A DNA stretch of 64,000 bases, taken from contig NZ_NSKH01000024.1 in assembly GCF_003144095.1 (NCBI RefSeq), positions 201,198 through 265,197 of the forward strand. Reading direction: 5' to 3'. The translations under genes were made by a program, and so were the position numbers. The notes beneath the pieces were generated by a model, which did no database searches, had not been told where the DNA came from, and worked only from the letters and a program-made list of their open reading frames with translations. Source of the DNA: Streptomyces sp. ICBB 8177. Its GTDB lineage: Bacteria; Actinomycetota; Actinomycetes; Streptomycetales; Streptomycetaceae. Positions 19,070-37,052 of the stretch are shown piece after piece (positions within the stretch are counted from its first letter, which is position 1; each line of letters begins with the position of its first letter).

Positions 19070-19310
19070 CCGTCATACCTTCCGTGTGGGGTGGTAGGTG
19101 GCGGTGCGGGTGCGAAGGGGATTCTTCGCGCGTAGAACGTGGGGTGGGCTGCCCCGCGTCGACGAGCGGGTGAAACGTACATGACAATCTGCCCACGGGA
19201 CAACGCTTCCGCACCCACCCCACAGGTTCGGCGGCAGGCCCCGCGGGGGCGAGGAGCGGCCCCCTCCGGGGCGAGGCGGGCCGGACGCGGCCGGACCCAC
19301 CCGGCCCGCG

Positions 19311-21053: not shown

Positions 21054-21057
21054 CGCG

Positions 21058-21798
21058 TCAGCCCTGCGGCTTGCGCAGCACGTAGCCGATGCCGCGCACG
21101 GTGTGGATGAGCTTGGGCGCGCCGCCGTCGCCGGAGTCGACCTTGCGGCGCAGGTAGGAGATGTACGACTCGACGATGCTCAGGTCGCCGCCGAAGTCGT
21201 AGGCCCACACGTGGTCGAGGATCTGCGGCTTGGACACCACCCGGCCCGCGTTGGCCATCAGGTACTCCAGCAGCTTGAACTCGGTCGGCGACAGCGACAC
21301 CGGCCGGCCGCCGCGCAGCACCTGATGGCCCACCGGGTCCAGTTCCAGGTCGCCGACCACCAGCGTGCCGTCCTCCTCCGGCCCGCCGGTGCGGCGCAGG
21401 ATGGCCCGGATGCGGGCGATCAGCTCCTCCAGGCTGAACGGCTTGGTGACGTAGTCGTCGCCGCCCGCGGTCAGCCCGGAGACCTTGTCCTCCACGCCGT
21501 CCTTGGCGGTAAGGAAGATCACCGGGAGCCGGTCGCGGGCCGCCGCCGCGCTCCTGCCGTACGCGCCGGACTCCTCACGCAGCCGCCGCACCACCGCGAA
21601 GCCGTCCATGTCGGGCAGCATCACGTCCAGCACGACCAGGTCGGGCCGCTCCTTGGCGACCGCCGCGAGCGCCTCGTTCCCCGAGGCCGCCGAGGCGACC
21701 TTGAACCCGGCGAAGCGCAGGGAGGCGGAGAGCAGTTCCCTGATGTTGGGTTCGTCGTCCACGACCAGCAGGCTGGCCTCGGGTGCGGATGCGTCCAT
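21058..21798 (-). CDS. OmpR-family response regulator
   Basis: LLVVDDEPNIRELL receiver domain and a winged-helix output domain (LSPTEFKLLEYL...GYVLRKP). ATG chosen at MDASAPE. Confidence 0.85.
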   Translation of the reverse strand: MDASAPEASLLVVDDEPNIRELLSASLRFAGFKVASAASGNEALAAVAKERPDLVVLDVMLPDMDGFAVVRRLREESGAYGRSAAAARDRLPVIFLTAKDGVEDKVSGLTAGGDDYVTKPFSLEELIARIRAILRRTGGPEEDGTLVVGDLELDPVGHQVLRGGRPVSLSPTEFKLLEYLMANAGRVVSKPQILDHVWAYDFGGDLSIVESYISYLRRKVDSGDGGAPKLIHTVRGIGYVLRKPQG

Positions 21799-21934
21799 GG
21801 TCGTTGCGGCCCCTGGGGAGATTGCGGGCGTGGGTCGCGCGCGGTCGGTACGGGCGAGCGCACGGTACGCCCGCAGTCTTTGGAATCCCTGAGACGTCCT
21901 CGGTGCCTGCGACGTCCATACCTGAAACGTCGCG

Positions 21935-22753
21935 TCAGCCGTTGCCGCCGCCGGAGGCACCGGCGCCCGTGCCGCCCCCACCGCCGAAGCCGCCACCACC
22001 GAACCCACCACCGCCGAAGCCGGTGCTCGCGCCCTCGGTGACCGTCGTCGCCGCGATGTCGCCGGAGGAGTCCTGGGTGCCGCGCACGGTGACGGTCTGG
22101 CCGGGCTGGAGGTCGGACGTCCTGCCCGGCTTCGCCTCGGTCACCTGGGTGGACTTGCCGGTGGTGACCTTCACGATGTCGCCCTGGGCGTCGGTCACGT
22201 AGATCGTGCTGCCGTCGACCAGCTTCACCGTGCCCATGGTCAGGCCGGAGCCGGAACCGGAGCCGCTTCGGCCGGCGCCCGCGGAGGCACCGCTCCCGCC
22301 GAAGCGGCCCGCCGCACCGTAGGCACCCGTGCCGCTGCCGGTGCCCGTCGCTCCGCGCGCCCCGGCGGCGAACGTGCCGCCCGCGTGCCCGGAGCCGTTC
22401 AGATCGCTCTTCTCCACCAGCGCGCCGCCCGCGAACGCCAGCGCGGCGACCACCGCGCCGGACAGCGCCAGCGTCAGCCACGGCAGCTTGCGGCGCGGCG
22501 GCGCGGCCAGTTCGGCGGAGATGTCGCGGGCGTCCGGCGGCTCGGCGAGGACCGACTCCGGGTCGGTGACCGGCTCGACCGCGGTGGCGACCACGCCCGC
22601 GTCGTCCATCGTGGCGAGCACGGCGGTGGGCTCTCCCCCGGTTTCGTTCCTGGGTTCGTCCCTGGATTCGTCCCTGGGTTCGTCGAGCAAGGTGTCGGAC
22701 GGCGCCGGGTGGTGGGCGTCCGCCTTCACGAGATCGGTGCGGCGTCGGGCCAT
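21935..22753 (-). CDS. Membrane-anchored hypothetical protein with a DUF5666-like beta domain and Gly-rich repeats
   Basis: One TM helix, then TVKLVDGSTIYVTDAQGDIVKVTTGKSTQVT, flanked by GGFGGGG repeats. Sits upstream of the response regulator. Confidence 0.5.
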   Translation of the reverse strand: MARRRTDLVKADAHHPAPSDTLLDEPRDESRDEPRNETGGEPTAVLATMDDAGVVATAVEPVTDPESVLAEPPDARDISAELAAPPRRKLPWLTLALSGAVVAALAFAGGALVEKSDLNGSGHAGGTFAAGARGATGTGSGTGAYGAAGRFGGSGASAGAGRSGSGSGSGLTMGTVKLVDGSTIYVTDAQGDIVKVTTGKSTQVTEAKPGRTSDLQPGQTVTVRGTQDSSGDIAATTVTEGASTGFGGGGFGGGGFGGGGGTGAGASGGGNG

Positions 22754-22842
22754 GTCCGGTTCTCCTGTCCGTACGGGAGTCGAGTCGTCGAGTCGTGAGG
22801 AAGGGATGGAGGGGTGGTGGTCGCAGGCCTGCGGCGGCGCCG

Positions 22843-24054
22843 CTACTCGTGCCGCAGTGCCTCGATCGGCCGCAGGCTCGCCGCCCGGTTGGCGGGGTAG
22901 CTGCCGAAGAACAGCCCGATCGCGACGGCGATGGCGAACGCGCCGACCACCGACTCCGGGATGACCACCGGCGTGATGCCCACGATCTTGAAGCGGGAGC
23001 CGAGCAGGCCCACGGCCACACCGAGTCCGCCGCCGATCAGCGACAGCAGCGTCGACTCGGCGAGGAACTGGCCGAGGATGACGCCCTTGGGCGCGCCGAT
23101 CGCCTTGCGGATGCCGATCTCACGGGTCCGTTCTGCGACGGTGACCAGCATGATGTTGGTGATGCCGATGCCGCCGACCAGCAGCGAGATCGCGGCGACC
23201 GCGCCCAGCAGCACGGTGAACGTCTGGTTGGTGGACGCCTGCGTGGTCAGCAGCGACGCCTGGTTGCTGACCTGGAAGTCCAGCGCGGTCGGGTCGCTGA
23301 TGCCGTGCTGGCCCATCAGCACCGTGGTGATCTCGTTCTGCGCGGCGGTCGTCGCGGAGGCCGACTTCGCCTCGACCAGGATCTGGTTGAGCGAACCGAA
23401 GCCGGTGAACGCGTTCTGCACGGTCGGCAGCGGCGCGACCACCACGTCGTCCGGGTCCTGGAACCCGGTGCCGCCCTTGGTCTCCAGGACGCCGACCACG
23501 GTGAACGGCGTGCCGCCGAGCACCATCTGCTTGCCGACCGGGTTCACCGTGCCGAACACGTCGGTGGCCGTGGTCGAGCCGATCACCGCGACCTTGCGGG
23601 AGCCCAGCACGTCGTCGTCGCTGAAGTAGTCGCCCTTGGCGACCTTGCTGTTGGACGCCTCGAAGTAGGCCGGGTAGGTGCCGACGACCTGGCTGACGGT
23701 GTGCGAGGTGCCCTGGTAGACCGCGGTCTGCGAGGTGGTGACCTCGGGCGCGACCGACTCGATGTCCGGCGCCTGCTTCGGGTCGGCCAGCGCCTTGGCG
23801 TCGTCCACGGTCAGCGGCTTGATCGTGGTCGCGGTGGACTGGCCGCCGAAGCCGCCGCCGGAGGTGACGGTCAGCGAGTTGGTGCCCAGCTTCTCGATGG
23901 AGTCCTTGACCGCCTGCGACGAGCCGTTGCCCACCGCCAGCAGCAGGATGACCGCGGCGACACCGATGAGCACCCCGAGCATGGTCAGCGCGGAACGCAC
24001 CTTGTTCGCCGCCAGGCCCGCCACGGCGAACCGCAGCGTCTGCAACGGATTCAT
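22843..24054 (-). CDS. ABC transporter permease (FtsX/MacB family)
   Basis: N-terminal TM helix, large periplasmic domain, and C-terminal FtsX 3-TM bundle (TREIGIRKAIGA). Start overlaps the ATPase stop (ATGA). Confidence 0.85.
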   Translation of the reverse strand: MNPLQTLRFAVAGLAANKVRSALTMLGVLIGVAAVILLLAVGNGSSQAVKDSIEKLGTNSLTVTSGGGFGGQSTATTIKPLTVDDAKALADPKQAPDIESVAPEVTTSQTAVYQGTSHTVSQVVGTYPAYFEASNSKVAKGDYFSDDDVLGSRKVAVIGSTTATDVFGTVNPVGKQMVLGGTPFTVVGVLETKGGTGFQDPDDVVVAPLPTVQNAFTGFGSLNQILVEAKSASATTAAQNEITTVLMGQHGISDPTALDFQVSNQASLLTTQASTNQTFTVLLGAVAAISLLVGGIGITNIMLVTVAERTREIGIRKAIGAPKGVILGQFLAESTLLSLIGGGLGVAVGLLGSRFKIVGITPVVIPESVVGAFAIAVAIGLFFGSYPANRAASLRPIEALRHE

Positions 24055-24935
24055 CGCCCGCCTCCCGGGGCCGCCGCGAAGGCGGCGGGATCACGCAGCG
24101 CGGGCGGTGGTCCGTCCACCGGCGCCTGCCGTACGTCGTCCACCACGCGGCCGTCGACCAGCCGCAGCACCCGCTTGGCGTGCCGGGCCACCTCGTCCTC
24201 GTGGGTGATCAACACGACCGTGCGGCCGGACGCGTTGAGCCGGTCGATGATGGCCAGCACCTCCTCGGTGCTGCGGCTGTCGAGGTTGCCGGTCGGCTCG
24301 TCGGCCAGCAGCATCGCGGGCGCGGTGACCAGGGCGCGGGCGACCGCCACGCGCTGCTGCTGGCCGCCGGACAGCTCGTTGGGGCGGTGGTCCATCCGGT
24401 CGCCGAGACCCACCAGGGTCAGCGCCGCCTCGGCCCGCCGCCGGCGTTCCGCGGACCTCACCCCGGCGTACGCCAGCGGCAGTTCGACCTGGTCGAGCGC
24501 GGGAGTGCGCGGGATCAGGTTGAACGACTGGAAGACGAAGCCGATCTTTCGGTTGCGCACCAGCGACAACTGGTGCTCGTCCAGCCCGCCGACGTCGATG
24601 CCGTCCAGCAGGTAGCGGCCGTGGCTGGGCACGTCGAGACAGCCGAGGATGTTCATCAGCGTCGACTTGCCCGAGCCCGAACTTCCCATCACCGCCACGA
24701 AGTCGCCCTGCTCGACGGACAGGTCGACGCCGAGCGGCTCGCCGCCCTCCGGGTCGTCCGGGCCCTTCAGGGCGTGGACGGACGCCTCGCCGTGCCCGTA
24801 CACCTTGCGCAGCGCGCGTACCTCGATGACCGGCGGCGGGCCCCAAGGGCCTTGCGCGTCAAGGGAGTCGGGGACAGAGGCGGGCGCGGGCCCCGCGTCC
24901 GCGCCCCGGCGGCGCTGCCGCGCGGACCCGATCAT
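24051..24935 (-). CDS. ABC transporter ATP-binding protein (MacB-type)
   Basis: Walker A GSSGSGKST, signature LSGGQQQRVAVARAL, Walker B LLADEPTGNLD. Start overlaps the adaptor stop (ATGA). Has an approximately 9-aa insertion before the first conserved strand. Confidence 0.85.
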   Translation of the reverse strand: MIGSARQRRRGADAGPAPASVPDSLDAQGPWGPPPVIEVRALRKVYGHGEASVHALKGPDDPEGGEPLGVDLSVEQGDFVAVMGSSGSGKSTLMNILGCLDVPSHGRYLLDGIDVGGLDEHQLSLVRNRKIGFVFQSFNLIPRTPALDQVELPLAYAGVRSAERRRRAEAALTLVGLGDRMDHRPNELSGGQQQRVAVARALVTAPAMLLADEPTGNLDSRSTEEVLAIIDRLNASGRTVVLITHEDEVARHAKRVLRLVDGRVVDDVRQAPVDGPPPALRDPAAFAAAPGGGR

Positions 24936-26367
24936 CCGCGGCCCCCGCCACCGGACCGGATCCCGCCGCCGGTGCGCCCGCCACCGAAGCCGCCACGGCT
25001 GCCGCCACCGCCCAGACCGCCGGGGAACGAGCCGCTGGGGAAGCCGTTGCTGCCGGTCGAGGCGACCGAGGCGATCTGCACCGTCTCGCCCTGCGTCAGG
25101 CCGCTGGTGATCTGGTCGTCGGTGTCGCCCTCGACGCCCACGGTGACGTCGACCCGCTGCGTGGAGCCGTCCGCCTTGACGACGGTCACCGTGCGGTCGG
25201 TGCCGGTGCCGCTGACCGCGGCGGTCGGCACGTACAGGGCGCCGGACGCCTCGCCGGTGACGACCTGGACGGTCGCGCTCATGCCGGTGCGCAGGTTCGC
25301 GGTGGAGCTGGTGATGGCCAGGGTGGCCGCGTACTGGACGGCGCTGCCGGAGCTGCTGCCGCCCCCGCCGCCTCCCGAGCCGGAACCGCTGCTGACCGGG
25401 AGCGAACTGACCGACACCATTTTCGCGTTGAGGGTGGTGCCGGACTCCGCGTTGAGGCTGACGGTGGCCGCCTGGCCGGGCTTGACCTTGAGCGCGTCGG
25501 TCTCGGAGAAGTCCGCGGTGACCTCCATGCCGGTCGGGTTGGTGATGACCACGAAGCCGGTGGGGGCGGAGGACGAGGAGGAGCTGGAGGACGAGCCGCT
25601 GCTCGCGTTGCCGCTGCCTGAGCCGCTGGAGCCGCTTGAGCCGCTTGAGCCCGACACCGTGTCGCCGACCTTGCCGGCCACCGAGGCGACGGTGCCGCCG
25701 ACCGGGGCCGTGAGCACGGTGCCGTCCACGGCGCGCTGCGCGGCGTCCACCGCGTCCTGCGCCTGGGTGACGCTCGCCTCGGCCTGCGCGAGTTGCGCGG
25801 GGTCGACGGTGGTGGTCAAGGCGGCGTCGGTGGCGGTGGCGGTCGTGGTGCCGCTCGTCAGGTAGGAGGAGTCACGGGCCCCGCCGCCGTTCGAGCCACC
25901 GTTGGAGCCGCCGTTCGAACCACCGGAACCCGTTGAACCGGATCCGGACCCGGAGGTGGTTGTGGTGCTCTCCCCCTCCTCGACCTTGGTCAGATTGGCC
26001 TGGGCGGCGGTGAGGTTGGCCTCGTCCTCGCTGAGCGTCTCGTTCGCGGAGGTCGGGTCGACCTTGGCGAGCGTCTCGCCCTTGGTGACCTTGTCGCCGG
26101 GCTTGACGTCGACCTCGGTGAGCGTGCCGCCCGTGGTGAAGTCGACGCCCGCGTCGGTGGGCGACGTCAGCGATCCGGAACCGGAGACCGTGGCCAGCAC
26201 GGTCCCCTTGGCAACGGTCGCGGTACGCGTGCTCGTGTGCGCGGAACCGCCGCCGCCGCTGTTCACCGCCGCGTAGGAACCGGCGGCGGCAGCGAGGAGC
26301 ACCACGCCGAGCACCGAGTTCATCAGGACGGCCCTGCGCCGCCGTGGGAGCACCTTCATGCCGCGCA
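24932..26367 (-). CDS. Efflux periplasmic adaptor (HlyD/MacA family) with long Gly/Ser-rich regions
   Basis: Signal/TM segment, biotinyl-lipoyl-like and beta-barrel segments (VKPGDKVTKGETLAKVDP..., GTVLTAPVGGTV). Start chosen at MRGMKVLP; the ORF track extends further. Confidence 0.75.
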
Positions 26368-26621
26368 TCCTGACCGCCCGCTCCAGTGAACCCCTGGGAG
26401 CGATCTGGGAGTTCGCTGGCAGCGCGAGCGCGTGCGTGCGACACGAGGGCGGGGGCGGAACGGTTGATACAGGGAGCAACCCCACTCGACGAACCGGCGC
26501 CGCCCCGGCACGATTCCCAGGAAACTCCCAGGTCGTTCCCAGGGGTCCTCCATGCCGGTGCGGTTCAGTCGTGCGGAATCCGTTCCCGAGCCGTTTTCGA
26601 ACCCACGAGGAGACCGCGCCC

Positions 26622-27224
26622 ATGACGACCCGGACCATCCCGACGGCGCTGCGGGCCGCCGCGTCCGTAGCCGTCATCGCCTCGGGCGCGCTGCTGCTGA
26701 CCGCGTGCTCGTCGTCCTCGTCCTCCTCCGCGTCGTCGAACGCGTCGGCGTCGGCGTCCTCCTCCTCAGCGGGCGGGCGTCAGCAGATGGCCGCGTACAC
26801 GCAGTGCCTGTCGCAGCACGGTGTCAAGATCACCCGGCCCTCGGGCCGCCCGAGCGCGCGGCCGAGCGGCGGCTTCCGCCACGGTGGCGGTGGCGGCGGC
26901 GGGTTCGGCGGCTTCGGCTTCGGCGGCGGGGCGTCGGCGAACCCGGCGATGCAGAAGGCCGCGCAGGCCTGCGCGAGTCTGCGTCCGCAGTTCAAGGGCG
27001 GCGGCGGCAACAGTGCCTACGCGACGGCGTTCAAGGCGTTCACGGGGTGCCTGAAGGACCACGGCGTCAACCTCCCGTCCGCCTCCTCCGGCACGATGGG
27101 CGGCGGCACGCGCGGCCTCAACACCTCGGACCCGAAGACCGCGGCGGCCTACAAGACCTGCAAGCCCCTCCTCCCCCAGCGGGGCCCCGGCAACCCGACG
27201 GCTAGCGCAACCCCGTCGGCGTAG
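26622..27224 (+). CDS. Lipoprotein (Cys-containing repeats, Gly-rich)
   Basis: Lipobox LLLTAC after a signal peptide. Repeated QCLSQHGV / GCLKDHGV motifs. Confidence 0.6.
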   Translation: MTTRTIPTALRAAASVAVIASGALLLTACSSSSSSSASSNASASASSSSAGGRQQMAAYTQCLSQHGVKITRPSGRPSARPSGGFRHGGGGGGGFGGFGFGGGASANPAMQKAAQACASLRPQFKGGGGNSAYATAFKAFTGCLKDHGVNLPSASSGTMGGGTRGLNTSDPKTAAAYKTCKPLLPQRGPGNPTASATPSA

Positions 27225-27249
27225 CAGCCCGCCCCCTCGCCTTCCGCGA

Positions 27250-27333
27250 ATCAGTTGTCACCCCCTTGTCTCCGGCAACAACCTCAGGTTGACAATTCGT
27301 TGTCTCCGACAAGGGGGTGACAACTGATTCACG
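27250..27333. repeat. Long imperfect inverted repeat (about 25-bp arms) in the convergent intergenic region
   Basis: TGAATCAGTTGTCACCCCCTTGTC ... GACAAGGGGGTGACAACTGATTCA with a 35-nt spacer that has its own internal dyad symmetry. Confidence 0.75.
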
Positions 27334-27344
27334 GGGAACGAGGC

Positions 27345-27885
27345 GTGCCGCCGTCAGCTGCTCCGGATGTGGTGGAGCATCAGCAGGGCGGCGACGGCGT
27401 TGGCCGACCGGATCTCACCGCGGGTCACCAGGTCCGGCACGTCCTTGAGCGGCACCCACTCCCGGCGCTCCGACTCGAAGGCGTCCTCCGGGTCGCCGAC
27501 GTATTCGGCATCCTGGGCCCAGAAGACCTAGTGGCGGGCGTCGGTCAGCCCATGCTGCGGCTCGACCATCATCAACTCCCGCAACGGCCCCGGTCGCCAG
27601 CCCGTCTCCTCCAGCATCTCCCGCGCGGCGGCGTCCGCCGGCTCCTCCCCGTCCTCGACCACGCCGGCGGCCAGTTCGTAGCTCCACGTGCCGGTGATGA
27701 AGCGATGCCGCCACAGCAGGAGGACCTCGTCGGCGTCGTTGACGACGGTCGCCAGAGCCACCGGCCGCTGCCGGATGACGTAGTGGTCCAGGTGGCGGCC
27801 GTCAGGCAGTTCCACGTCAGCGAGGTTCACCCGAAGCCACGGGTTCTCGTACACGGTGTGCTCGCCGAGATTCGTCCACCGCACC
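27345..27885 (-). pseudogene. NUDIX hydrolase interrupted by an in-frame TAG (27528-27530)
   Basis: NUDIX box GVVEDGEEPADAAAREMLEETG upstream of the stop. The reading frame continues with homologous-looking sequence (VFWAQDAEYVGDP...VPLKDVPDLVTRGEIRSANAVAALLML) after the TAG. Confidence 0.65.
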
Positions 27886-27894
27886 GCGCGACCC

Positions 27895-28260
27895 TTAACG
27901 CGCCGACTTCTCGATTGCCTCGAAGATGTCCGCGTCGGTCTCCCTCTGCCACAGCGGGAGTTCTGGCCAGTCCGCCACGTAGCCCGGCTTCGGGTTTTCG
28001 AAGTGCTTGAACATCTGAGCGGTCCAGCAGGTGGCGACGAAGCGGCTCTTCTGCTCGCGGGACAGCCGGTCCGTCCTGGCGTCACTGACCTCGACGAACC
28101 GACGCACCTGCTCGTACACCGCTTGCGCCGCATCGCGTTCCCACTGCGGGGTGTCGTCCCACGGGGTCACGTATCCGGCCTTCGGCTCACCGGGAAAGTG
28201 CCGCCGCACGCCCTCGATCCAGGCCTCCCGGAACAGTCGTGCACCCTCGGTCTGCGACAT
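27895..28260 (-). CDS. Hypothetical protein
   Basis: High GC3. ATG with a GAGGTGG RBS (MSQTEGARLFREAWIEGV...). Directly upstream of, and co-oriented with, the NUDIX gene. Confidence 0.5.
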   Translation of the reverse strand: MSQTEGARLFREAWIEGVRRHFPGEPKAGYVTPWDDTPQWERDAAQAVYEQVRRFVEVSDARTDRLSREQKSRFVATCWTAQMFKHFENPKPGYVADWPELPLWQRETDADIFEAIEKSAR

Positions 28261-28285
28261 GCCCACCTCTTCCGTCACGGTGTCC

Positions 28286-29526
28286 TCAGCGAGGCGATCT
28301 CCGCCTCCAACTCGGCCAATCGCCGGTCCCGTTTGTGACGGGGCCGAACTCGGCGCACAGCTCTCGGAGTCTACGAGTCAGGTAGCCGGAAGACGAGGCG
28401 CGAGCGAGTTCGACGGCCTCCCGGCCATACGACACCGCTTGTTCCAGGTCGCACCGCTTCACGCCGACGGCGCGAGGTCTGTCAACACAGCACCCCTTCT
28501 GCGATATGACTGCCCAGCGGCCAGGGCAGTGTTCCCCAGAGCCAAACTGAGCGTCGTCTCCGCACTTTCCAAACGCTCTAGTCGCACGTACCTGGCACCG
28601 CGCTCCTCCGCGAGACGAGAGCCATCGAACCTGAGCCATCCGCCGTTGCTAACGACCGGAGTGAGGTCCCGGACCTTCTCCGCACGGTCCAACGCGTCTT
28701 CGCAGGCTCGAAGTTCGCCCATACCGGCGTACGCCTCCGCTTGGACCGACGCGACCCAATGACGGGTCGGGAGCGCGCTGTCCCCATGCTCAGCCAGCCT
28801 CTCAGCCACACCAAGCATCTGTGACGCCTGGCCATAGCGGTGCTCTGCCATGTCAACATAGGCATGCCGTACCAAGGCGCATGCCCACAAGTCATAGGCC
28901 CCGGCCTCCCTGCTGAGCGATGCTGCGAGGACGTAGGAGGCCGCGGCGTCGTCATAGCGGTTCGCGTCGAAGGCCACCTCACCGGCCAACTGGAGGAGGT
29001 CTGCCGCAGCGGTCATGAGCGGCGGAATGTTCCCACGGCCAGCGGTCATCGCCTCGTTGACCGCTACGAGTTGGTCGCGGGCGAACCGTGCGTACGGATT
29101 GCTTCGACCTCGCCAGTTGGTAGACCTGCCAGAGATGACTGTTCATCCGGCTGAATTCAGTGGGCGTCGCCCGTCGAACACCCGTAGCGAGGGCTTCGGT
29201 TTCTTCGGCGGGAAGAGCGGCAAGTGCTCCGCTGAGGGCGAGCGAGCGAAGAAACGCGGCGAATCATCTCGTCATGCTCTCCGGCATTCGGGCGAACTTC
29301 GGCTTCGTGCGTGGTTTCTGCCCCGTCTGCTGTTCGGGACGTCGACAGGAGTGCATCGAGTTCTTGGAGGCTGACGTCCAACGCGGCCGCCAAACGCCGT
29401 CGCTGCGGTGGTTGAGGGGCGATCCTCCCGGCCTCCCAGCGCCCGACCGTCGTACGGTCCACGCCGAGTAACTCGGCCAGCTTCTCCTGACTGTAGCCCA
29501 GCACCCTGCGCCTCTTCGCCAATCCC
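28286..29526 (-). pseudogene. XRE-family HTH regulator with C-terminal TPR-like domain, split across three frames (at least two frameshifts)
   Basis: HTH piece 29526-29157 (LGYSQEKLAELLGVDRTTVGRWEAG), middle TPR-like piece 29049-28459, and C-terminal piece 28639-28286, all on the minus strand but in different frames. Confidence 0.55.
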
Positions 29527-30006
29527 ATGGCCGAACCTTCCCACAACGCGAGGCTTTCGCAGACCGTGCGCGGGTCTGCGTCAAGTCTGCCGCACTGATG
29601 CCGTGGTTACCCACGTCTTCGCGCGCTTTCCTGATGCAGCGGAGGATGAGCACGGTGAGCCCGGGAGGAGTTGCCATGGCCACAGGAGATCCCGACCCAG
29701 AAGGCGAGTTGAACAGTTGTTCCCGAAGTCGAGAACGGCTCAGCGAACAGCGAGTCCTCATGACGTACAGAGTCTCTCGTGATTCCGGACGTACTTGGGA
29801 GCAGTCACCCAGGTGCTTGGGGACGACCACCTGCCGATCCTGGACAACCCACGTCGCTATCCACCCTGCGCGTGCCCACGTTGTTCAGGCGTGGCCGACG
29901 GCCCCGGTCGCGCAACGACAGTCTGGCCAGTTGCGGACCTGTAGGAGCGAGCCATCGTCTCCAGCGGGTCCAACCACACCGAAGGATCGAAACCAAAGGA
30001 GAAGCA

Positions 30007-30158
30007 TGCGAATCGCAGCGATCAGGCACATGGACACCAGCGGAGCGTTCGCGCAAGGCGACGAGGAGAAGGACAAGCTGCCGGGGCAGCCGTGGACGCC
30101 GCAGCCGCCCTCGCCGGACGGTGGTAGTCCTCAGGGTGACGGGAAGCACCGCAAGTGA
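30007..30158 (+). CDS. Small precursor-like peptide (50 aa) with a conserved Asp-Gly-rich C-terminus; candidate substrate of the downstream PIMT homolog
   Basis: ATG preceded by a perfect AAGGAG RBS at 5-nt spacing. Product is MRIAAIRHMDTSGAFAQGDEEKDKLPGQPWTPQPPSPDGGSPQGDGKHRK. Its stop TGA overlaps the GTG start of the next gene. A paralog is present at 34166. Confidence 0.7.
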
Positions 30159-31303
30159 CCGACACGGACACCGGCCGCCCCAGCGACGAGTTGGGGCGGT
30201 ACCTCCTTGATCGCGGTGACATGACATCGGACTGGGCCGTGCCTTTCGCCGCCGTGCCGCGTGCGGCGTTCCTGCCCGACCGGATGTGGGTCTGGGACAT
30301 GGAGACACAGGGGACTGAACTCCACGACAAGCAAGATGACTTGGCCGCTTGGACCCGTGCCGCCTACCGTGACGCGCCGATCGTCACCCAGTGGGACGAC
30401 GGCCGGCACGCCGGGTCCACGGCCGGGAGGCTCGCCACCAGCTCGGCGTCGATGCCCTCCGTGGTCCTGAGCATGCTGCGGGACCTCGACGTCGTGGACG
30501 GTGTGCGGGTACTGGAGATCGGCACCGGCACGGGCTGGAACGCGGGGCTCCTGTGTGCCCGCCGGGGCGAGGCGAACGTCGTCACCGTCGAGGTCGACGC
30601 CCAGGTGGCCGCCACCGCACGCACCGCGCTGGGCAGAGCCGGGCTGCGGCCCGCCGTCGTCTGCGGTGACGGCGCGGCCGGATACGGTGTCCGCGCACCG
30701 TACGACCGCGTGATCGCCACCGTGGGCGTGCGTAGCGTGCCGTACGCGTGGATCGAGCAGACCCGCCCCGGCGGAATCGTGCTCACCCCCTGGGGCACGC
30801 ACTACAGCAACCAGGAGGCCCTGGCCCGCCTCACGGTGGACGAGGACGGCACGGCGTCGGGTCCGTTCCTGCGGCCGGTCGAGTTCATGACCCTGCGCGG
30901 CCAGCGTCTCGACTGGGGGCGGTTCTCCGGCCACGTTCCGGAGGACTACGCGTCGATTCCTGCCGTGCGGAGAAGCTGCGTCACCTTGGCCGAACTGACC
31001 GGCACCGCCCAGCAGTTCGTGTGCGGGCTGCGGATGCACCGGTGCGCCCAGGTCGTCAACGGGCGCCGCGTCTGGCTCTTCGACATGGACTCGACGTCCT
31101 GGGTTCTGGCGGAGTTCCCGGAGGAAGACGGCCCACCGCTGGTGAGGCAGTTGGGGCCGCGACCCTTGTGGGACGAGTTGCTATGCGTCCTCGAATGGTG
31201 GAGACGGGGAGGCTCGCCGGGCCCCCGCCACTTCGGGCTGACGGTCACTCCCAACGGTCAGTCGGCATGGCTTCTCGACCGCGCCAACGCCTGGGTCGTG
31301 TGA
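30155..31303 (+). CDS. Protein-L-isoaspartate(D-aspartate) O-methyltransferase (PIMT/PCMT) family protein with an approximately 150-aa C-terminal extension
   Basis: VLEIGTGTGWNAGLL SAM motif I and overall PCMT-like N-terminal layout. GTGA overlap with the upstream peptide gene. The architecture resembles PIMT homologs found in RiPP clusters. Confidence 0.8.
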   Translation: MTDTDTGRPSDELGRYLLDRGDMTSDWAVPFAAVPRAAFLPDRMWVWDMETQGTELHDKQDDLAAWTRAAYRDAPIVTQWDDGRHAGSTAGRLATSSASMPSVVLSMLRDLDVVDGVRVLEIGTGTGWNAGLLCARRGEANVVTVEVDAQVAATARTALGRAGLRPAVVCGDGAAGYGVRAPYDRVIATVGVRSVPYAWIEQTRPGGIVLTPWGTHYSNQEALARLTVDEDGTASGPFLRPVEFMTLRGQRLDWGRFSGHVPEDYASIPAVRRSCVTLAELTGTAQQFVCGLRMHRCAQVVNGRRVWLFDMDSTSWVLAEFPEEDGPPLVRQLGPRPLWDELLCVLEWWRRGGSPGPRHFGLTVTPNGQSAWLLDRANAWVV

Positions 31304-31402
31304 CTACGCGGGACTCTTGTCTCCGGCCCGCGTGCCGAAGGCCCCCGTCGCGGTGGGCGCGCTGGGGGCCTTCGGGGTGAGGCGGCGTCAAAAGGGCTCG
31401 CC

Positions 31403-32599
31403 TCAGCGGATGTTCACCGGGCCGTCGTCGTCCGAAGTGCCGTCCTGCGGGCGGGTCTTGGCCGTGCCCAGGTAGCGCTGGAGCTGTGCGCCGGGGGCCG
31501 GAGAGGAAGACGCGCCGTCCGCGCCGCTGAGGTTGCGGCGGACCGAGTCCAGGATCGTCAGGCCCTGGCCGACCAGGCCCGCCGCGATCTCGCCCAGGCC
31601 GTCCGCGCCGTTGAGGACGTTGACGTTCGCGCCGGCCAGGCCCGCCGACGCCTCCTTGACGATCTGCGGCAGCTGGTCGATCAGCATGCGGTCGAGCGCG
31701 ACGCGGTCGTGCGAGGCGGCGGCCTCTGCCTGGATCTTCATCCGTTCGGCCTCGGCCAGCGCCAGCACCCGGATGCGCTCGGCCTCCGCCTGCGCGGGCT
31801 TGACCACCTCGGCGACCAGCTGCTGCTGCCGCAACTGGGCCGCGCGCTCTGCCAGTTCGGTCTGCGCCGCCAGCACCTCCTGCTGGGCGTGCGCCTGCGC
31901 CAGCGGTCCGGCCTGCGCGGCCTGCGCCTGGACGCGGTCCACCTCGGCGTTGTACTGCGCCTGCACGACCGCGGTCTGCCGGGCGTACTCGGCCTGGTTG
32001 CGGGCCGCCTCCTGCTGCGCCTCCACCGACTGCTGGGTGGCCTGCGCCTGCGCGATCTGCGCCTGCCGCTGGATGGCCGCCTTGTGCGGGGCGGACATCG
32101 CGTCGATGTAACCGGTGTCCCCGTCGTCGATCGACTGGATCTGCAACGAGTCCACGATCAGGCCGATCTTGGCCATCTCCGCCTTGGACGTCTCCAGCAC
32201 CTCGGTGGCGAGCTTCTGCCGTTCGGTGACGATCTCCTCGACCGTCATCGAGCCGATGATGGCCCGCAGGTGGCCCGCGAAGATGCGGCCGGTCAGGATC
32301 GACATCTGGTCCTGGTCGGACAGGAAGCGCTGACCGGCGTTGACGATGCTCTCGTTGTCGTTGCCGACCTTGAACGCGATCACGGCCTTCACCGTCAGCG
32401 CGATGCCCTGCTTGGTCACGCACTTCTCTGCGACCTCCGCCTCGCACATCGCGAGGGTGAGGAAGCGGACCTTGCGGAACACGGGGAGGACGAACTTGCC
32501 GTGCCCCGTCACCACCCGGAACGGAGCACCCCCCTGGCCCCGCCTGCCCCCCGAGATCAGCATCGCCTCGTCAGGGGCGGGAACGCGGTAACCGAACAT
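31403..32599 (-). CDS. Flotillin-like SPFH/band-7 domain protein
   Basis: SPFH domain (EAEVAEKCVTKQGIALTVKAVIAFKV...) followed by a long Ala/Gln-rich coiled coil. Confidence 0.85.
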   Translation of the reverse strand: MFGYRVPAPDEAMLISGGRRGQGGAPFRVVTGHGKFVLPVFRKVRFLTLAMCEAEVAEKCVTKQGIALTVKAVIAFKVGNDNESIVNAGQRFLSDQDQMSILTGRIFAGHLRAIIGSMTVEEIVTERQKLATEVLETSKAEMAKIGLIVDSLQIQSIDDGDTGYIDAMSAPHKAAIQRQAQIAQAQATQQSVEAQQEAARNQAEYARQTAVVQAQYNAEVDRVQAQAAQAGPLAQAHAQQEVLAAQTELAERAAQLRQQQLVAEVVKPAQAEAERIRVLALAEAERMKIQAEAAASHDRVALDRMLIDQLPQIVKEASAGLAGANVNVLNGADGLGEIAAGLVGQGLTILDSVRRNLSGADGASSSPAPGAQLQRYLGTAKTRPQDGTSDDDGPVNIR

Positions 32600-32613
32600 C
32601 CTTCGTCGTCTCC

Positions 32614-32864
32614 TCAACCAGCGTCGCCGGCGTCACCGGCCAACGCGTCCAACGGATCGGCCCATTCGATGACGTCGACCTGGCGGGTGCCCCGGGACTC
32701 GACCACCAGGACGTTCGCTCCCTTGGGCAGCGGCTCCGCGGACCAGGCGAGGAACGCCTCCGATCCGCCCCGGACCCGCACCAGCACCTCGCCGGGCCCG
32801 TCGGCCCCGCGAGTGCCGATGAGCAGCACCCCCGCGCAACCGACCACAGCCTCGTCCGACGCCA
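32614..32864 (-). CDS. NfeD-like OB-fold protein (flotillin-associated)
   Basis: GEVLVRVRGGSEAFLAWSAEPLPKGANVLVVESRGTRQVDV OB-fold pattern. Immediately upstream of the flotillin gene. Confidence 0.6.
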
Positions 32865-32990
32865 TTGACGGCCATCCCCCATCGTTCCTGGTCCTGGTTC
32901 CGACCTTAGCGCTCCGCGAGATCGACGCCCATGGTGGTGAGGTCACGAGTCGGGGGGCGCCCACCGCCAGCGGCCCGAGCCCGGACGGCC

Positions 32991-33719
32991 TCAGTGGCGC
33001 TCGTGCCCCAGCCCGATCTCGTACGCGATCTCCAGCCGCACGTCCGGCACCGTGATGTCGGCCGTCTCGACCGGGCGGCCGTCCGCCGCGTAGTACGTGC
33101 GCTCGATGTGCAGCAGCAGGTCACCGGGGGCGATGCCGAGCAGCGCCGCCTCCGCGGTGGTGGCCCGTCCGGGACGCGGCACCTCCACGGCCCTGGTGAT
33201 CTCGATGCCGATGCTGCGCATCCGCTCGACCACGCCCTTGCCCTTCATCGGGCCCAGCTCCGGCAGCACGATCGGGGTGCGGCCGGTGATCGCCATCGGC
33301 TCCCAGCTCTCCGCCAGGTGGACCGGCTGACGGTCGGTGAGGAACTCGTACCGCGTCCGTACGCACATGTCCCCCTCGGCGATGTCCAGCCTGCGGGCGA
33401 TGCGGGCCGGGGCCGGGGTGTGCGCCTCGCTGTGGAACTCGCGTGCGGCGCCGCCGCCCGGGGTGGCCTCACCACGCGAACGCACCATCCGGTGCCGCTC
33501 GCGCGGCTCGCGCACGTACGTGCCGGAGCCCGCCCGGCCCTCCAGCAGGCCCTCGACGATGAGCAGGTCGACCGCGCGCTGCGTCACGTTCCGCCCGACG
33601 CCGTACTCCTCGGCGAGGCGGGCGCGTGACGGCAGGCGTTCGCCGGTGGCCCACTCCCCGCCCCTGACCCGGGCGCGCAGGGCCTCGGCGACCTCGAGGT
33701 AGGGGGCCTCGCGTGCCAT
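32991..33719 (-). CDS. GntR/HutC-family transcriptional regulator (UTRA effector domain)
   Basis: N-terminal GntR wHTH (LPSRARLAEEYGVGRNVTQRAVDLLIVEGLLEGRAGSGTYV) plus a C-terminal UTRA-like domain. Confidence 0.85.
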   Translation of the reverse strand: MAREAPYLEVAEALRARVRGGEWATGERLPSRARLAEEYGVGRNVTQRAVDLLIVEGLLEGRAGSGTYVREPRERHRMVRSRGEATPGGGAAREFHSEAHTPAPARIARRLDIAEGDMCVRTRYEFLTDRQPVHLAESWEPMAITGRTPIVLPELGPMKGKGVVERMRSIGIEITRAVEVPRPGRATTAEAALLGIAPGDLLLHIERTYYAADGRPVETADITVPDVRLEIAYEIGLGHERH

Positions 33720-33810
33720 CCGCCGTCTCCCGACTGCCGTGTGCCGTCTACCGGTTGGTGCGCTCTTGGGTGCCTTTGCTCCGTTGACAAAGCTACTGCA
33801 TCAGGTACAA

Positions 33811-33824
33811 GCTGCTTAAGCAGC
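33811..33824. promoter_or_regulatory. Perfect 14-bp palindrome GCTGCTTAAGCAGC in the GntR divergent promoter region (candidate operator)
   Basis: Self-complementary sequence in an AT-richer stretch between the GntR start (33719) and the downstream operon. A TTGACA hexamer lies at 33784-33789. Confidence 0.5.
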
Positions 33825-33866
33825 ATTACCATGTGTGATCACCGGCCGCCTCACCTGGGGACATTC

Positions 33867-34166
33867 GTGCGTTCACCCGAAGCCCGCGCCCGCGAGGTCG
33901 CCGACCGGCTGGCGGCCGCGACCGGCACCGAGGCCCGCACCCTCGCGACCCCGGAGGCCATCCGGGTCGAGGTCTACGTCCCCGACGAGATCCCGGAGCC
34001 GCTGCACACCGCCCTCGTCGACGCCCTGCGCCGCGCCGACCGCTACGGGCACGCGCGCACGGCGGACGCGGCGGTGGCGTGGGCGGAGATCACCCGTACC
34101 GGCCGGGGCGACGTGCCCGGCGAAGAGCACGACCACCCACCCCAGCCCCAGGAGGGAACGCCATGA
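33867..34166 (+). CDS. Hypothetical protein (about 99 aa), translationally coupled to peptide copy 2
   Basis: Very high GC3. GTG with a GGGGA RBS; an alternative ATG lies at 33831. Stop TGA overlaps the ATG of the peptide gene (ATGA). Confidence 0.5.
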   Translation: MRSPEARAREVADRLAAATGTEARTLATPEAIRVEVYVPDEIPEPLHTALVDALRRADRYGHARTADAAVAWAEITRTGRGDVPGEEHDHPPQPQEGTP

Positions 34167-34297
34167 GGATCGAGATCCTGACGCACGCAGGCGGCGACGG
34201 CGGCGACAGCCTCCCCGGCCAGCCCTGGCAGCCCCCGCAGGAGCCGCCGAGCCCGGACGGCGGCAGCCCCGAGGGGGACGGGAAGCACCGCAGGTGA
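34166..34297 (+). CDS. Small precursor-like peptide, copy 2 (43 aa), paralog of the 30007 gene
   Basis: GGAGG RBS. Product is MRIEILTHAGGDGGDSLPGQPWQPPQEPPSPDGGSPEGDGKHRR. The C-terminal 27 aa are nearly identical to copy 1. Stop TGA overlaps a GTG start (GTGA), as in copy 1. Confidence 0.65.
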   Translation, partial: RIEILTHAGGDGGDSLPGQPWQPPQEPPSPDGGSPEGDGKHRR

Positions 34298-34689
34298 CCG
34301 TGCGCGACACGGCGCGAGCGCGGCCCACCCGGCAGGAGCTGGGCCGCGCCCTGCGCGCCTCGGGTGCGCTGGGTCAGGCCTGGGTGCCCGCTTTCGAAGC
34401 GGTCGACCGGGCCGCGTTCCTGCCCGACGTGATGTGGCCGTACGACATGGCGACCGGCGCCAGTGCCACGGTGGACCGGCGCACCGATCCGGACGCCTGG
34501 TTCGCCTGCGCCGACCGCGATGTACCGATCACCACGCAGTGGGACGACGGCGCGCACGAAGGACCGGCGCCGGGGAGGGTCGCCACCTCGTCGTCGTCCA
34601 TGCCGTCGGTCGTCTTCCGGATGCTGGACGACCTCGCGCTGGTCCTCGCCGTCGGAACGCCTTCACAAGAAGTTCGCGGGGAACACTGA
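34294..34689 (+). pseudogene. Truncated paralog of the PIMT-family methyltransferase (N-terminal about 130 aa only)
   Basis: ...VPAFEAVDRAAFLPDVMWPYDM...ITTQWDDGAHEGPAPGRVATSSSSMPSVVFRMLDDL aligns to residues of about 25-115 of the 30155 protein, then ends in a stop before the SAM-binding motif. A lower-GC junction follows (ATCCACACATATGTTTGTCTGCATGATTTCGG). Confidence 0.65.
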
Positions 34690-34787
34690 AGATCCACACA
34701 TATGTTTGTCTGCATGATTTCGGTCTCAGCCCCCGGTCTTTCCCGATTCATTGCCCTGACGCGCCGGGGGTTCCCCGGGTCAGACGT

Positions 34788-36671
34788 TCACGCGCCGGGG
34801 AAGACCAGCGACTGCTCGCCGCCCAGGGTGGCCGGGGTGGTGTCCTGGAAGAGGGAGGCCGAGCCGTCCGGCCAGCGGGCGAGGATGTCGTCGGCGGAGG
34901 CGTTCGCCGTGTAGGCGCCGACCGTCATCGCCGCCGCGGACTTCCAGCGGGCGTTGGCGTTCAGCAGGCGGTGCTCGGTGCCCAGGCGGGACTGCGAGGT
35001 GGCCGGGTAGACGTCGAGTTCGCCGTCGATCCAGCGCACGGCCACGTCCCAGTTGGCGCCCGCGCCGCCGAAGTGGCCGGCCGCCACCGACACCGCGTAC
35101 TTCCACGTGGCGTTGGGGGCCAGCAGCCGGTGCTTGGTGCCGAAGGTGTTCGCGCCCACGCCGGTGTAGACGTCGACCTCGCCGTTGCTCCAGCGCACCA
35201 GCAGGTCGCTGACGTAACTGCCGTTGTGGAACTGGCCACCCGTGATCTGCGCGGCGTTCTTCCACGCCGATCCCGGCTTCGCCATCACGACCTCGTGGCC
35301 GAGCCCGGACGAGCCGAGATCGGGGAAGAGGCTGACGTGCCCGTCCGCCCAGCGCACCATCAGGTCGTACTGACCGCTGCCCGCGAAGTCGCCGGCCGTG
35401 ATGGTGGCCGCCTGCTTCCACGCGGCGTTCGGCGCCTTGAGCTGCTTCTCCGGCAGGAAGCCGCCGTTGCCGTCGCCGGGGTAGAGGGTGACCTCGCCGT
35501 CGTCCCACACCACGACCAGGTCGCCGTGGTGGTCACCGGTGAAGTCGCCGGACGCCAGCAGCTTGGCGTGCTTCCACAGCGCCGCCCCGCCGGGCAGCTT
35601 GGGCTGGAGGCCGGTGTACGGGGGCAGCGGCGTGGGCGGCTGCTGCTGTCCCGCGACCGCCCGGGCGAGCAGCGCGGCGGCGTCGGAGCCGAAGTACGTG
35701 CCGTAGCTGATGTAGTTGACGTCCTGGTCGTTGCCGCCGCCGTTGTAGCCGCCGAGGTCGCCGATGACGTGGCCGGAGGTGGCGCCGTCCGCGTAGTCGG
35801 TGATCCAGGGACTGCCGGAGACGCCGCCGTAGTAGCCGCCGCAGGTCATCGACATCTGCCGGAAGCCGGGCAACTGGGTCGTCGGCACCGTGCACTTGAT
35901 GGCCGAGCCGTTCGGGTTGTGTCCGTAGGCGGGGTAGCCGACGACGGTCACGTGCGGGTTGTCGTACGTCGTGGGCTCGGTGAAGGTCAGCCCGCCGCCG
36001 ACCGCGTCCTGCACCTGCTGCCCCTTCTGGTTGGGCGCCAGCGTGGCGAACGCCGTGTCCAGGTCGGAGGTGGGGCCCTTGGTGGTGTGCGAGCCCGGAT
36101 CGGGGGTGTAGCGCGGGTCGATGTAGACCTGCTGCACGGGGAAGATGCCGTACGGCTGGCCGGCGGGCGCGGCGCCCATCACGAAGTCCGGCACGAAGAC
36201 GTAGTTGGCGTGGATGCCCAGGCCGCAGTGGGCGGCGGTGAGGATGACGTCGCGGGCCGGGGTGTCGATGACGCTGCCGGTGCAGGTCCAGTCGGTGCCG
36301 GTGGGGCCGTCGGAGCCGAAGAAGGTGCCGACCAGCGGCGTGCCGCGGAAGAACGTGCCCTGCGGGACGCCCGCCCCCTTCGGCGTCATCGGCCGCATGC
36401 CGCCGCCGGTCCGCGCGTCCAGCGGGCGGGCGTTCGCCATCCGCTGGGCCGTCCAGTACGAGGCGGCGGCGCGCGCCTTGGCCCCGGGGTCGGCGGCGGG
36501 ACGCCTTGAAGCAGCGGCACCGGAGGCGTGGTGGGCGGCGGACGGGGCGGCCGGTTCGTGGTGGGCCGGAGAGGCGGCGGAGGCCTGCGCCCCGGTGAGT
36601 CCGAGGACCGCCGCACAGACGGCGGCCAGCGCCGCCAGACGCGACGAGCGTCGCGAGTACCGCGAAGACAA
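34788..36671 (-). CDS. Secreted trypsin-like (S1 family) serine protease fused to a C-terminal FG-GAP/VCBS repeat domain
   Basis: Signal peptide, TAAHCG histidine motif, GDSGGP-like region (GGVSGSPW), then repeated FxGDxxGDG FG-GAP-type units. TTG start. Confidence 0.7.
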   Translation of the reverse strand: MSSRYSRRSSRLAALAAVCAAVLGLTGAQASAASPAHHEPAAPSAAHHASGAAASRRPAADPGAKARAAASYWTAQRMANARPLDARTGGGMRPMTPKGAGVPQGTFFRGTPLVGTFFGSDGPTGTDWTCTGSVIDTPARDVILTAAHCGLGIHANYVFVPDFVMGAAPAGQPYGIFPVQQVYIDPRYTPDPGSHTTKGPTSDLDTAFATLAPNQKGQQVQDAVGGGLTFTEPTTYDNPHVTVVGYPAYGHNPNGSAIKCTVPTTQLPGFRQMSMTCGGYYGGVSGSPWITDYADGATSGHVIGDLGGYNGGGNDQDVNYISYGTYFGSDAAALLARAVAGQQQPPTPLPPYTGLQPKLPGGAALWKHAKLLASGDFTGDHHGDLVVVWDDGEVTLYPGDGNGGFLPEKQLKAPNAAWKQAATITAGDFAGSGQYDLMVRWADGHVSLFPDLGSSGLGHEVVMAKPGSAWKNAAQITGGQFHNGSYVSDLLVRWSNGEVDVYTGVGANTFGTKHRLLAPNATWKYAVSVAAGHFGGAGANWDVAVRWIDGELDVYPATSQSRLGTEHRLLNANARWKSAAAMTVGAYTANASADDILARWPDGSASLFQDTTPATLGGEQSLVFPGA

Positions 36672-37052
36672 AGGAGTGTTCCCCCCAAGCGATGAAACGA
36701 TCCGCGCGGCAGTGGTCCCGCGCCGTCACATACGCCTGCCGCGGCCGTGGTGTTCAACCGGCGGAGGCGGTGCCTCCGCCGCTGTCACGCAGCGGACATC
36801 AGCGGCACAACGGCACCACACCGACATCTCACAGCCACTGAACAGGCAAATGTGATCGCCGGATTGTCGCACAAGGAAGTAGAGTGCCCAGGCTCGAACA
36901 CTCTCTTCACACACCGGACACGTTCTCCGCGTCGTCGTGGTGTCCGGCCGTGCGCGACAGCACCACACCACGCGCGCGGGTGCGCACCCCACCTCGCACC
37001 GTCCTCGTCGAAGACAGTCGCACCGTCCTTTTCAGAACAGAAGGGCACTTAC

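Follow-up and report, generated by a model that had tools for sequence, protein, structure and literature searches.

Type I pamtides, described from the SpaA/SpaM pair of Streptomyces sparsogenes (Lee et al. 2023, PMC10787088), and imiditides, described from NmaA/NmaM of Nonomuraea maritima (Cao et al. 2023, 10.1101/2023.04.07.536058), are the same class of RiPPs, peptides that are made on the ribosome and then modified after translation. The class, which is commonest in Streptomyces, is defined by a Gly/Pro/Asp-rich precursor of ~45 amino acids (aa) with a basic C terminus and by a homolog of protein isoaspartyl methyltransferase (PIMT) that bears an extra C-terminal domain (PMC10787088; 10.1101/2023.04.07.536058). 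SpaM and NmaM were both shown to methylate one Asp, yielding an aspartimide (PMC10787088; 10.1101/2023.04.07.536058); for SpaM, subsequent hydrolysis to isoaspartate was inferred by the authors but not confirmed (PMC10787088), and the imiditide study reported no other conserved genes (10.1101/2023.04.07.536058). Here, we analyze a 64,000-nucleotide stretch of the genome of Streptomyces sp. ICBB 8177 (contig NZ_NSKH01000024.1, positions 201,198 to 265,197; GC content of 72%), hereafter called the window, in which two such precursor-methyltransferase modules, pep1-PIMT1 and pep2-PIMT2, lie on either side of a flotillin operon. An earlier note on this DNA had presented the modules as duplicated and their association with the flotillin as an unfamiliar combination; we conclude instead that the locus is very probably a lineage-specific juxtaposition of three independently conserved units.

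Judged by their sequences, both modules are new representatives of an already described RiPP class, the type I pamtides/imiditides, because the features of their precursors and PIMT homologs match the published definition; novelty of the peptide/PIMT pair is thus not supported. As in the described systems, a Gly/Pro/Asp-rich precursor of ~45 to 50 aa, acidic near its N terminus and basic at its C terminus, lies directly upstream of, and co-directional with, a PIMT homolog of 370 to 400 aa that contains a GxGxG motif and a C-terminal WxxxGxP motif, and the neighborhood contains neither a cyclase nor any other enzyme that defines a RiPP class. The locus departs from those systems in having two paralogous cassettes 4 kb apart, one of which is without a functional enzyme, and in having a conserved divergent regulator for each cassette (an XRE-TPR protein in one case and GntR plus the small protein orf105 in the other); moreover, modification has been shown only for SpaA/SpaM and NmaA/NmaM and is predicted for pep1 and pep2. 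The best NCBIfam match of PIMT1 is to the graspetide O-methyltransferases (TIGR04188, e.g., ThfM of fuscimiditide), with which it shares a two-domain architecture and a full-length alignment (profile positions 8 to 362 of 363), but the score of 296.6 bits is below the family cutoff of 380, there is no neighboring ATP-grasp ligase, and pep1 is linear and Pro-rich, in contrast to the Thr/Asp stem-loop precursors of graspetides. Neither the Pfam matches of the open reading frames (ORFs) scanned between 26.6 and 36.7 kb nor the annotation of the locus in the sister species, Streptantibioticus parmotrematis, include an ATP-grasp enzyme, LanB/C, or a lasso cyclase.

The gene set of the locus (Table 1) was established from an ORF listing, a codon-position GC profile, Pfam and NCBIfam scans, and comparison with the sister genome (locus L001), and it assorts into three units. 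Unit A (27.9 to 31.3 kb) is a type I pamtide/imiditide cluster in which pep1-PIMT1 is accompanied by orf121 and by the pseudogene of a divergent XRE-TPR regulator; Unit B (31.4 to 32.9 kb) is a widespread two-gene operon encoding an NfeD-like protein and a flotillin; and Unit C (33.0 to 34.7 kb) is a second, anciently paralogous pamtide cluster, in which a GntR/UTRA regulator is divergent from orf105-pep2-PIMT2. A nonhomologous deletion of 4.4 kb has removed the catalytic two-thirds of PIMT2 together with three downstream genes. All elements first described are present, with minor corrections to their coordinates: the intact module occupies positions 30006 to 31303 (formerly given from 30007) and the truncated one positions 34163 to 34689 (formerly from 34166), both are on the same strand with a start-to-start spacing of 4,157 bp, and the flotillin, NfeD-like, and GntR genes between them are all on the minus strand, although the NfeD-like product is a protein of 83 aa and not a 116-aa ORF.

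The locus was compared with about 85 other genomes. PIMT1 has more than 3,100 homologs at an E value of <1e-10, and 531 loci were confirmed in a collection of one genome per species; our survey covers the 80 that best match PIMT1 (79 of them from species other than S. parmotrematis), each with up to 10 kb of flanking sequence in which flotillin and NfeD homologs were sought by tblastn (E < 1e-3). The flotillin comparison covers six other loci (L082 to L085, L089, and L090), which derive from two Actinacidiphila, three Streptomyces, and one metagenomic contig.

Each of the units occurs apart from the other two. In Streptomyces sp. NPDC059649 (L011), orf121 and an XRE-TPR gene are divergent from a precursor-PIMT pair, and this arrangement is collinear with window positions 27905 to 29273 at 69% nucleotide identity; orf121 is also near a PIMT gene in L043. 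Unit B is present in all six of the other flotillin loci, where the flotillin is 86 to 95% identical, the flanks vary, and no PCMT gene lies within 7 kb. Unit C is found in L086, in which a minus-strand GntR gene (76% identical) is divergent from orf105-precursor-PIMT (PIMT2 75% identical) with no flotillin present, and L087 and L088 contain the GntR-orf105 pair alone; across L086 to L088, the GntR orthologs are 57 to 76% identical and divergent beside orf105 homologs. Since Unit C is conserved in L086 without flotillin, GntR is the divergent partner of module 2 and not, as previously described, cargo bracketed by the modules along with the flotillin genes.

The survey likewise offers nothing for the proposed link between the peptide/modifier pair and flotillin: a flotillin or NfeD-like homolog occurs in the flank of up to 10 kb around PIMT in none of the 79 nonsister loci, and a PCMT gene lies within 7 kb of flotillin in none of the six other flotillin loci. 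At least four genomes (Streptomyces sp. RGM 3693, NPDC048516, NPDC048650, and S. inhibens) carry both, with the PIMT cassette and flotillin on separate contigs or at a distance of over 10 kb. Clustering of ~1,200 neighboring genes recovers, besides PIMT itself, no family present in more than 25 of the 80 loci, and the commonest neighbors (DUF397, XRE-DUF5753, HATPase_c_2, and DUF6879) are typical variable-region regulators. Because PIMT and flotillin occur apart in other genomes, their adjacency in the window is very probably incidental, a possibility that the earlier note had itself allowed; separate loci for PIMT/peptide pairs and flotillin, which the comparison shows, are the outcome that the note had named as refuting its own proposal.

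Among the genomes compared, only S. parmotrematis shares the layout in which both modules stand beside flotillin, with the same gene order as the window and with PIMT2 intact. Positions 18579 to 36701 of the window are collinear with its genome at 85 to 93% identity, apart from two indels: the first, 1.66 kb longer in the window, spans positions 28310 to 29972, where the XRE-TPR pseudogene and the leader preceding pep1 correspond to 88 bp in S. parmotrematis, and the second is the absence from the window of 4.4 kb (L001 positions 14704 to 19128). We infer that the adjacency had a single origin, in the ancestor that S. parmotrematis shares with ICBB 8177, and that it is now eroding.

Module 1 has the sequence features of a pamtide pair. 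The pep1 precursor (MRIAAIRHMDTSGAFAQGDEEKDKLPGQPWTPQPPSPDGGSPQGDGKHRK) is Gly/Pro/Asp-rich, with seven Gly, seven Pro, and five Asp that together make up 38% of its residues, and its stop codon overlaps the GTG start of PIMT1 by 4 nucleotides (nt). PIMT1 has kept all 82 of the residues that are invariant among 24 homologs; its GxGxG motif for binding of S-adenosylmethionine (SAM) reads EIGTGTG, with G123, G125, and G127 invariant in the family alignment, and its WxxxGxP motif reads WRRGGSP (W349 to P355), in which W349 and G353 never vary in that alignment and P355 hardly does. The C-terminal domain (residues ~250 to 382) falls within the TIGR04188 alignment and is a putative substrate-recognition domain. 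Module 1 thereby lies within the size limits applied to the class, which are 300 to 450 aa for the PIMT homolog, 110 to 180 aa for its additional C-terminal domain, and 30 to 75 aa for an Asp-containing co-directional ORF no more than 500 bp upstream. PIMT1 is 100% identical to a protein of Streptomyces sp. ICBB 8177. PIMT1 is thus classed, from sequence features such as these, as a RiPP-type peptide aspartyl O-methyltransferase (PAMT).

An ORF upstream of the PIMT homolog encodes the C-terminal motif LPGxPWxPP..PxPDGxxPxGDGxHRK in most of the 80 loci, the wider form of which is [L/H]PGxPWxPP..P.PDGxxPxGDGxHRK or a variant ending in ..PDGGPGVPNPPK. In most of these 80 best loci, the precursor ORF ends at the start of the methyltransferase, and it is often unannotated; at some loci it is uncalled, as is pep1 of S. 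parmotrematis. The sequences of pep1 and pep2 clearly belong to this family. Precursors, which lie ~150 nt upstream of position 10001 in each of L002 to L081, are strikingly conserved across more than 70 species, and their two C-terminal flavors (..PDGxxPxGDGxHRK and ..PDGGPGVPNPPK..) track the methyltransferase clades.

Module 2 is represented in the window by an intact precursor and the remains of its enzyme. The pep2 peptide (MRIEILTHAGGDGGDSLPGQPWQPPQEPPSPDGGSPEGDGKHRR; Gly, Pro, and Asp constituting 48% of its residues) is 91% identical to the product of a 45-aa gene in S. parmotrematis, its core is nearly identical to that of the L086 precursor, and it shares with pep1 the near-identical C-terminal segment PSPDGGSP[Q/E]GDGKHR[K/R]; in SpaA, replacing the last five residues abolished modification (PMC10787088). 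Both pep1 and pep2 have a roughly neutral net charge. The PIMT2 stump keeps the N-terminal 127 codons for a PAMT of 395 aa, beyond which the reading frame runs through sequence derived from the junction to a stop codon. The stump is 89% identical to residues 1 to 127 of the intact 395-aa PIMT2 of S. parmotrematis. It ends just short of GxGxG, the SAM-binding and C-terminal domains are gone, and a Pfam scan detects no remaining domain; with 127 homologous codons left, module 2 in the window does not encode a functional methyltransferase. In place of the ~4.4 kb present in S. parmotrematis (L001 positions 14704 to 19128), the window has ~18 bp of filler, and comparison of the junction sequences revealed no flanking direct repeat. 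The DNA deleted held the 3' two-thirds of PIMT2, a TetR gene, a flavin adenine dinucleotide (FAD) monooxygenase gene, and a gene of 475 aa with no Pfam domain, the last three of which are missing from the whole window.

Upstream of pep2, orf105 had been overlooked previously; it belongs to module 2 and is translationally coupled to pep2. Ten homologs of orf105 were detected, and its AlphaFold2 model (predicted local distance difference test [pLDDT] score of 84) has an alpha-beta-beta-alpha-beta-beta topology for which Foldseek finds only weak, generic alpha/beta-sandwich matches in the PDB (best E = 0.007; template modeling score of <0.5); neither Pfam nor NCBIfam contains a match. The regulator divergent from it has an N-terminal GntR winged helix-turn-helix (HTH) and a C-terminal UTRA domain, both scoring over their cutoffs. 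This divergent GntR/UTRA-orf105 pair is kept in Streptomyces, in Kitasatospora, and in an uncultured actinobacterium (L086 to L088, positions ~4100 to 5500), with or without a downstream precursor and methyltransferase. We regard it as conceivable, though on balance doubtful, that pep2, whose C-terminal segment is nearly that of pep1, is an orphan yet functional precursor modified in trans, since the loss of PIMT2, by the intact PIMT1 4 kb upstream and, as a separate matter, that GntR divergent from orf105-precursor-PAMT constitutes an undescribed four-gene variant of the pamtide cluster, with translational coupling between a small alpha/beta protein and the precursor. On the far side of the deletion junction, ~130 bp away, is the stop codon of the secreted protease gene, which encodes FG-GAP/VCBS-type repeats and whose DNA includes four periodic repeat units of ~159 nt (positions 34995 to 35524).

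Table 1. Genes and other features of the locus, in window coordinates
Feature	Position	Strand	Detail
Palindrome, ~88 bp, near-perfect	27235..27343	.	45-nt arms, 80% complementary
NUDIX hydrolase gene, internal TAG	27357..27884	-	Pfam NUDIX E=1e-14
orf121, conserved hypothetical	27898..28260	-	kept in S. parmotrematis, L011, and L043
XRE-family HTH + TPR regulator pseudogene	28337..29540	-	HTH_3 E=7e-13 on N-terminal fragment
pep1, 50-aa precursor	30006..30158	+	AAGGAG ribosome-binding site; GTGA overlap with PIMT1
PIMT1, intact, 382 aa	30155..31303	+	Pfam PCMT 90.9 bits, E=1.2e-25, residues 69-249
Flotillin/SPFH	31403..32617	-	Band_7 83.7 bits, E=2e-23
83-aa NfeD-like protein (putative)	32614..32865	-	conserved position upstream of flotillin
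GntR/UTRA (HutC-type) regulator	32991..33719	-	GntR 57.2 bits, UTRA 62.5 bits
orf105, small acidic protein	33867..34166	+	stop overlaps pep2 start (ATGA)
pep2, 44-aa precursor, intact	34163..34297	+	GTGA overlap onto PIMT2
PIMT2 stump, 131 aa	34294..34689	+	51% identity to PIMT1 N terminus
Deletion junction, ~18-bp filler	34642..34659	.	relative to S. parmotrematis
Trypsin-like/FG-GAP protease, 627 aa, secreted	34788..36671	-	

The flotillin of Unit B, whose gene probably begins at the ATG at 32599, has orthologs that are 85 to 95% identical across Streptomyces, Actinacidiphila, and Streptacidiphilus, and its ratio of nonsynonymous to synonymous substitution rates (dN/dS) is 0.13. Its Band_7 domain is well above the cutoff of 23.6 bits, its Flot domain (25.5 bits) is just under the cutoff of 27, and its score of 148 bits against the FloT equivalog (cutoff, 700) indicates that it is not that equivalog. 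A small gene of 75 to 85 aa precedes flotillin in all six of the other loci, and genes of the type encoding the 83-aa protein adjoin flotillin upstream on the same strand in the window and seven other genomes; the 83-aa protein is 96% identical in S. parmotrematis and 73 to 82% identical to the product of the gene directly upstream of flotillin in L082 to L085. The pair resembles yuaF-floT/yuaG of Bacillus subtilis, in which a small NfeD-like gene likewise directly precedes an SPFH/flotillin gene and is read in the same direction, and it has been kept across Streptomycetaceae, but the upstream product is here only 83 aa long, matches NfeD below threshold, and has no evident separate membrane-anchor region. 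A cytochrome P450 gene and a small ferredoxin gene, with or without a MarR gene, are downstream of flotillin in three of the six other loci (L084, L089, and L090; 8.2 to 10.5 kb), which looks like the more usual setting of Streptomyces flotillins, replaced in the lineage of ICBB 8177 and S. parmotrematis.

That the locus is a patch of decaying accessory genes, as previously proposed, stands insofar as three genes have decayed (XRE-TPR, NUDIX, and PIMT2), two indels separate it from the sister genome, and its GC content dips; the duplication that was part of the same proposal does not stand. The XRE-TPR pseudogene, divergent from pep1-PIMT1, is in worse condition than was claimed, with at least three frameshifts and one in-frame stop: residues 19 to 420 of its intact ortholog (439 aa; L011 positions 7929 to 9248) align in four segments in different frames (-3, -1, -2, and -1). 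That ortholog was missed by the gene caller, which filters at a third-codon-position GC fraction (GC3) of >=0.82 and a GC2 of <0.68. Between 28 and 30 kb, GC falls to 0.64 to 0.66 from ~0.72 to 0.73 in the rest of the window, a dip that coincides with the pseudogene and with the 460-bp noncoding leader of pep1, and GC3 is weak there (~0.7). Scans of 27 to 35 kb for sigma-70 promoters and intrinsic terminators returned none, although such scans are uninformative in an actinomycete with 72% GC.

Farther upstream, the NUDIX gene has, as reported, a single internal TAG (positions 27528 to 27530), at codon 119 of 176, where S. parmotrematis has CAC; before this stop, the Pfam match extends over profile positions 3 to 67 of 134. 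Over 175 aa, it shares 95% identity with its 176-aa counterpart in S. parmotrematis, which is intact. Because its dN/dS of 0.09 and that of the PIMT2 stump (0.22) are low, the inactivations of both genes appear, from these comparisons, to be recent relative to the species split. The change from CAC to TAG comprises two substitutions in a strongly conserved gene, which one would not ordinarily expect of a single, very recent inactivation. The adjacent orf121 has no significant Pfam match and is 88% identical in S. parmotrematis and 77% identical to its PIMT-adjacent orthologs in L011 and L043; candidate NUDIX matches at the latter two loci were rejected, since the query overlapped orf121 in another frame, and a true NUDIX gene is absent there.

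The inverted repeat also exists as described. This palindrome lies between the convergent ends of the NUDIX gene and a secreted-protein gene (stop at 27224), and its predicted hairpin has a free energy of -71.6 kcal/mol. In S. parmotrematis it occurs twice, at the orthologous site (L001 positions 8651 to 8720) and in the gap between PIMT1 and flotillin (L001 positions 11152 to 11238; 88.6% identical); the latter copy is also between convergent genes and is missing from the window. An Rfam scan of 26.5 to 35.5 kb returned only below-threshold miRNA-hairpin matches on the palindrome, which are spurious. By its appearance, the element is a small palindromic repeat of the dispersed kind, and it may serve as a bidirectional terminator.

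The relationship between the two modules bears directly on how the locus was assembled. PIMT1 is 48% identical to the full-length PIMT2 of the sister genome, and its first ~125 residues share 51% identity with the PIMT2 stump, whereas each is nearer to homologs in other species (55 to 58% for PIMT1 and up to 64% for the stump); a neighbor-joining tree of 74 homologs places them in different major clades, and several genomes carry both clades at unlinked loci. Because identity is only 48 to 51% and the clades differ, PIMT1 and PIMT2 are, by these sequence measures, ancient paralogs and not local duplicates, and the 80% nucleotide identity at the 3' end of the precursors is family-wide conservation of the motif and not the trace of a recent copy. 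No direct repeats like those suggested for 29.6 and 34.7 kb were found there beyond the homology of the modules themselves (stretches of 64 to 128 nt at 73 to 80% nucleotide identity). A second, divergent PIMT homolog occurs within 10 kb, with unrelated genes between, in 7 of the 80 loci (L002, L003, L019, L025, L043, L071, and L072); in L003, where the two share a strand and are 4.5 kb apart, the second precursor differs in type. Groups of paralogous pamtide cassettes in variable regions seem to be a recurrent feature.

Were the modules instead a recent local duplication or the ends of a composite mobile unit, they would be direct repeats formed in situ that mobilize, or recombine across, the flotillin-GntR segment. 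Their shared orientation, their separation of 4.16 kb, and the short stretches of high nucleotide identity would all fit such an origin, as would the seven other-genome loci with paired PIMT homologs, but we give it very little credence: besides the divergence of the enzymes, there are no terminal repeats, transposase, or integrase between 27 and 35 kb, the genes between the modules split into Units B and C, each with its own conserved partners, and the deletion by which PIMT2 was cut short has its end outside the modules, with filler and no repeat at its junction. Nor are the frameshifts, the TAG codon, and the truncation at all likely to be sequencing or assembly artifacts. The source is a draft assembly, with a contig of 463 kb, and in genomes of high GC content isolated frameshifts are a frequent kind of error; however, the XRE-TPR pseudogene accumulates its lesions within 1.2 kb, whereas the other genes compared across the patch (26.6 to 36.7 kb) have no frameshift relative to the sister genome, the NUDIX stop requires two substitutions, the PIMT2 truncation is a clean absence of 4.4 kb between collinear flanks, and the entire XRE-TPR gene has been lost, independently, from S. 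parmotrematis.

A functional coupling, in which the pamtides act at, or are organized by, a flotillin/NfeD microdomain and their bracketing of the operon is selected, draws on the retention of the arrangement in two species and on a 2026 review that speculates that imiditides/type I pamtides contact membranes through positive charge. We consider this highly improbable. In addition to the zero counts in the two surveys and the occurrence of each unit alone elsewhere, the pamtide and flotillin genes occupy opposite strands and have separate regulators, the enzyme of one module is gone in the window, the XRE-TPR regulator has been lost in both lineages, and pep1 and pep2 are near charge-neutral, not strongly cationic. 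Several considerations do weigh against the juxtaposition of three independent units that we favor. Preservation of the layout in two species leaves room, from sequence alone, for some lineage-specific co-regulation; one close relative was compared, and the scanned collection is without the ICBB 8177 genome; the PIMT loci were picked by their match to PIMT1, so that the PIMT2 clade is undersampled; and the tree that separates the two enzymes has no support values. In addition, the 83-aa protein is only a putative NfeD-like protein, with a putative OB-fold: its match to Pfam NfeD (PF01957; 14.5 bits, E = 0.043, positions 2 to 52 of 57) is below the cutoff of 29.1 bits, a PDB profile search is weak (YuaF [2k14], E = 0.34; NfeD short homolog [2exd], E = 0.91), a single-sequence AlphaFold2 model has a pLDDT of 54, which is too low to use, and the assignment leans as well on the conserved position of the gene.

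By analogy with the described systems, the product of an intact module would be formed by SAM-dependent O-methylation of one conserved Asp (in PDG or GDG), after which the ester would cyclize to an aspartimide and possibly then be hydrolyzed to isoaspartate. On the reading of the locus as three juxtaposed units, the adjacency to flotillin is uninformative on function and should not lead, through guilt by association, to the conclusion that membrane microdomains are where these peptides act. The class to which they belong is very abundant in Streptomyces, with precursors left uncalled at several loci, and some of its subfamilies have conserved partner genes (the XRE-TPR regulator in one case and GntR with orf105 in the other). 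The sister genomes, moreover, offer a clean natural case of the dismantling of a RiPP cluster, in which the enzyme has been deleted and the precursor kept.

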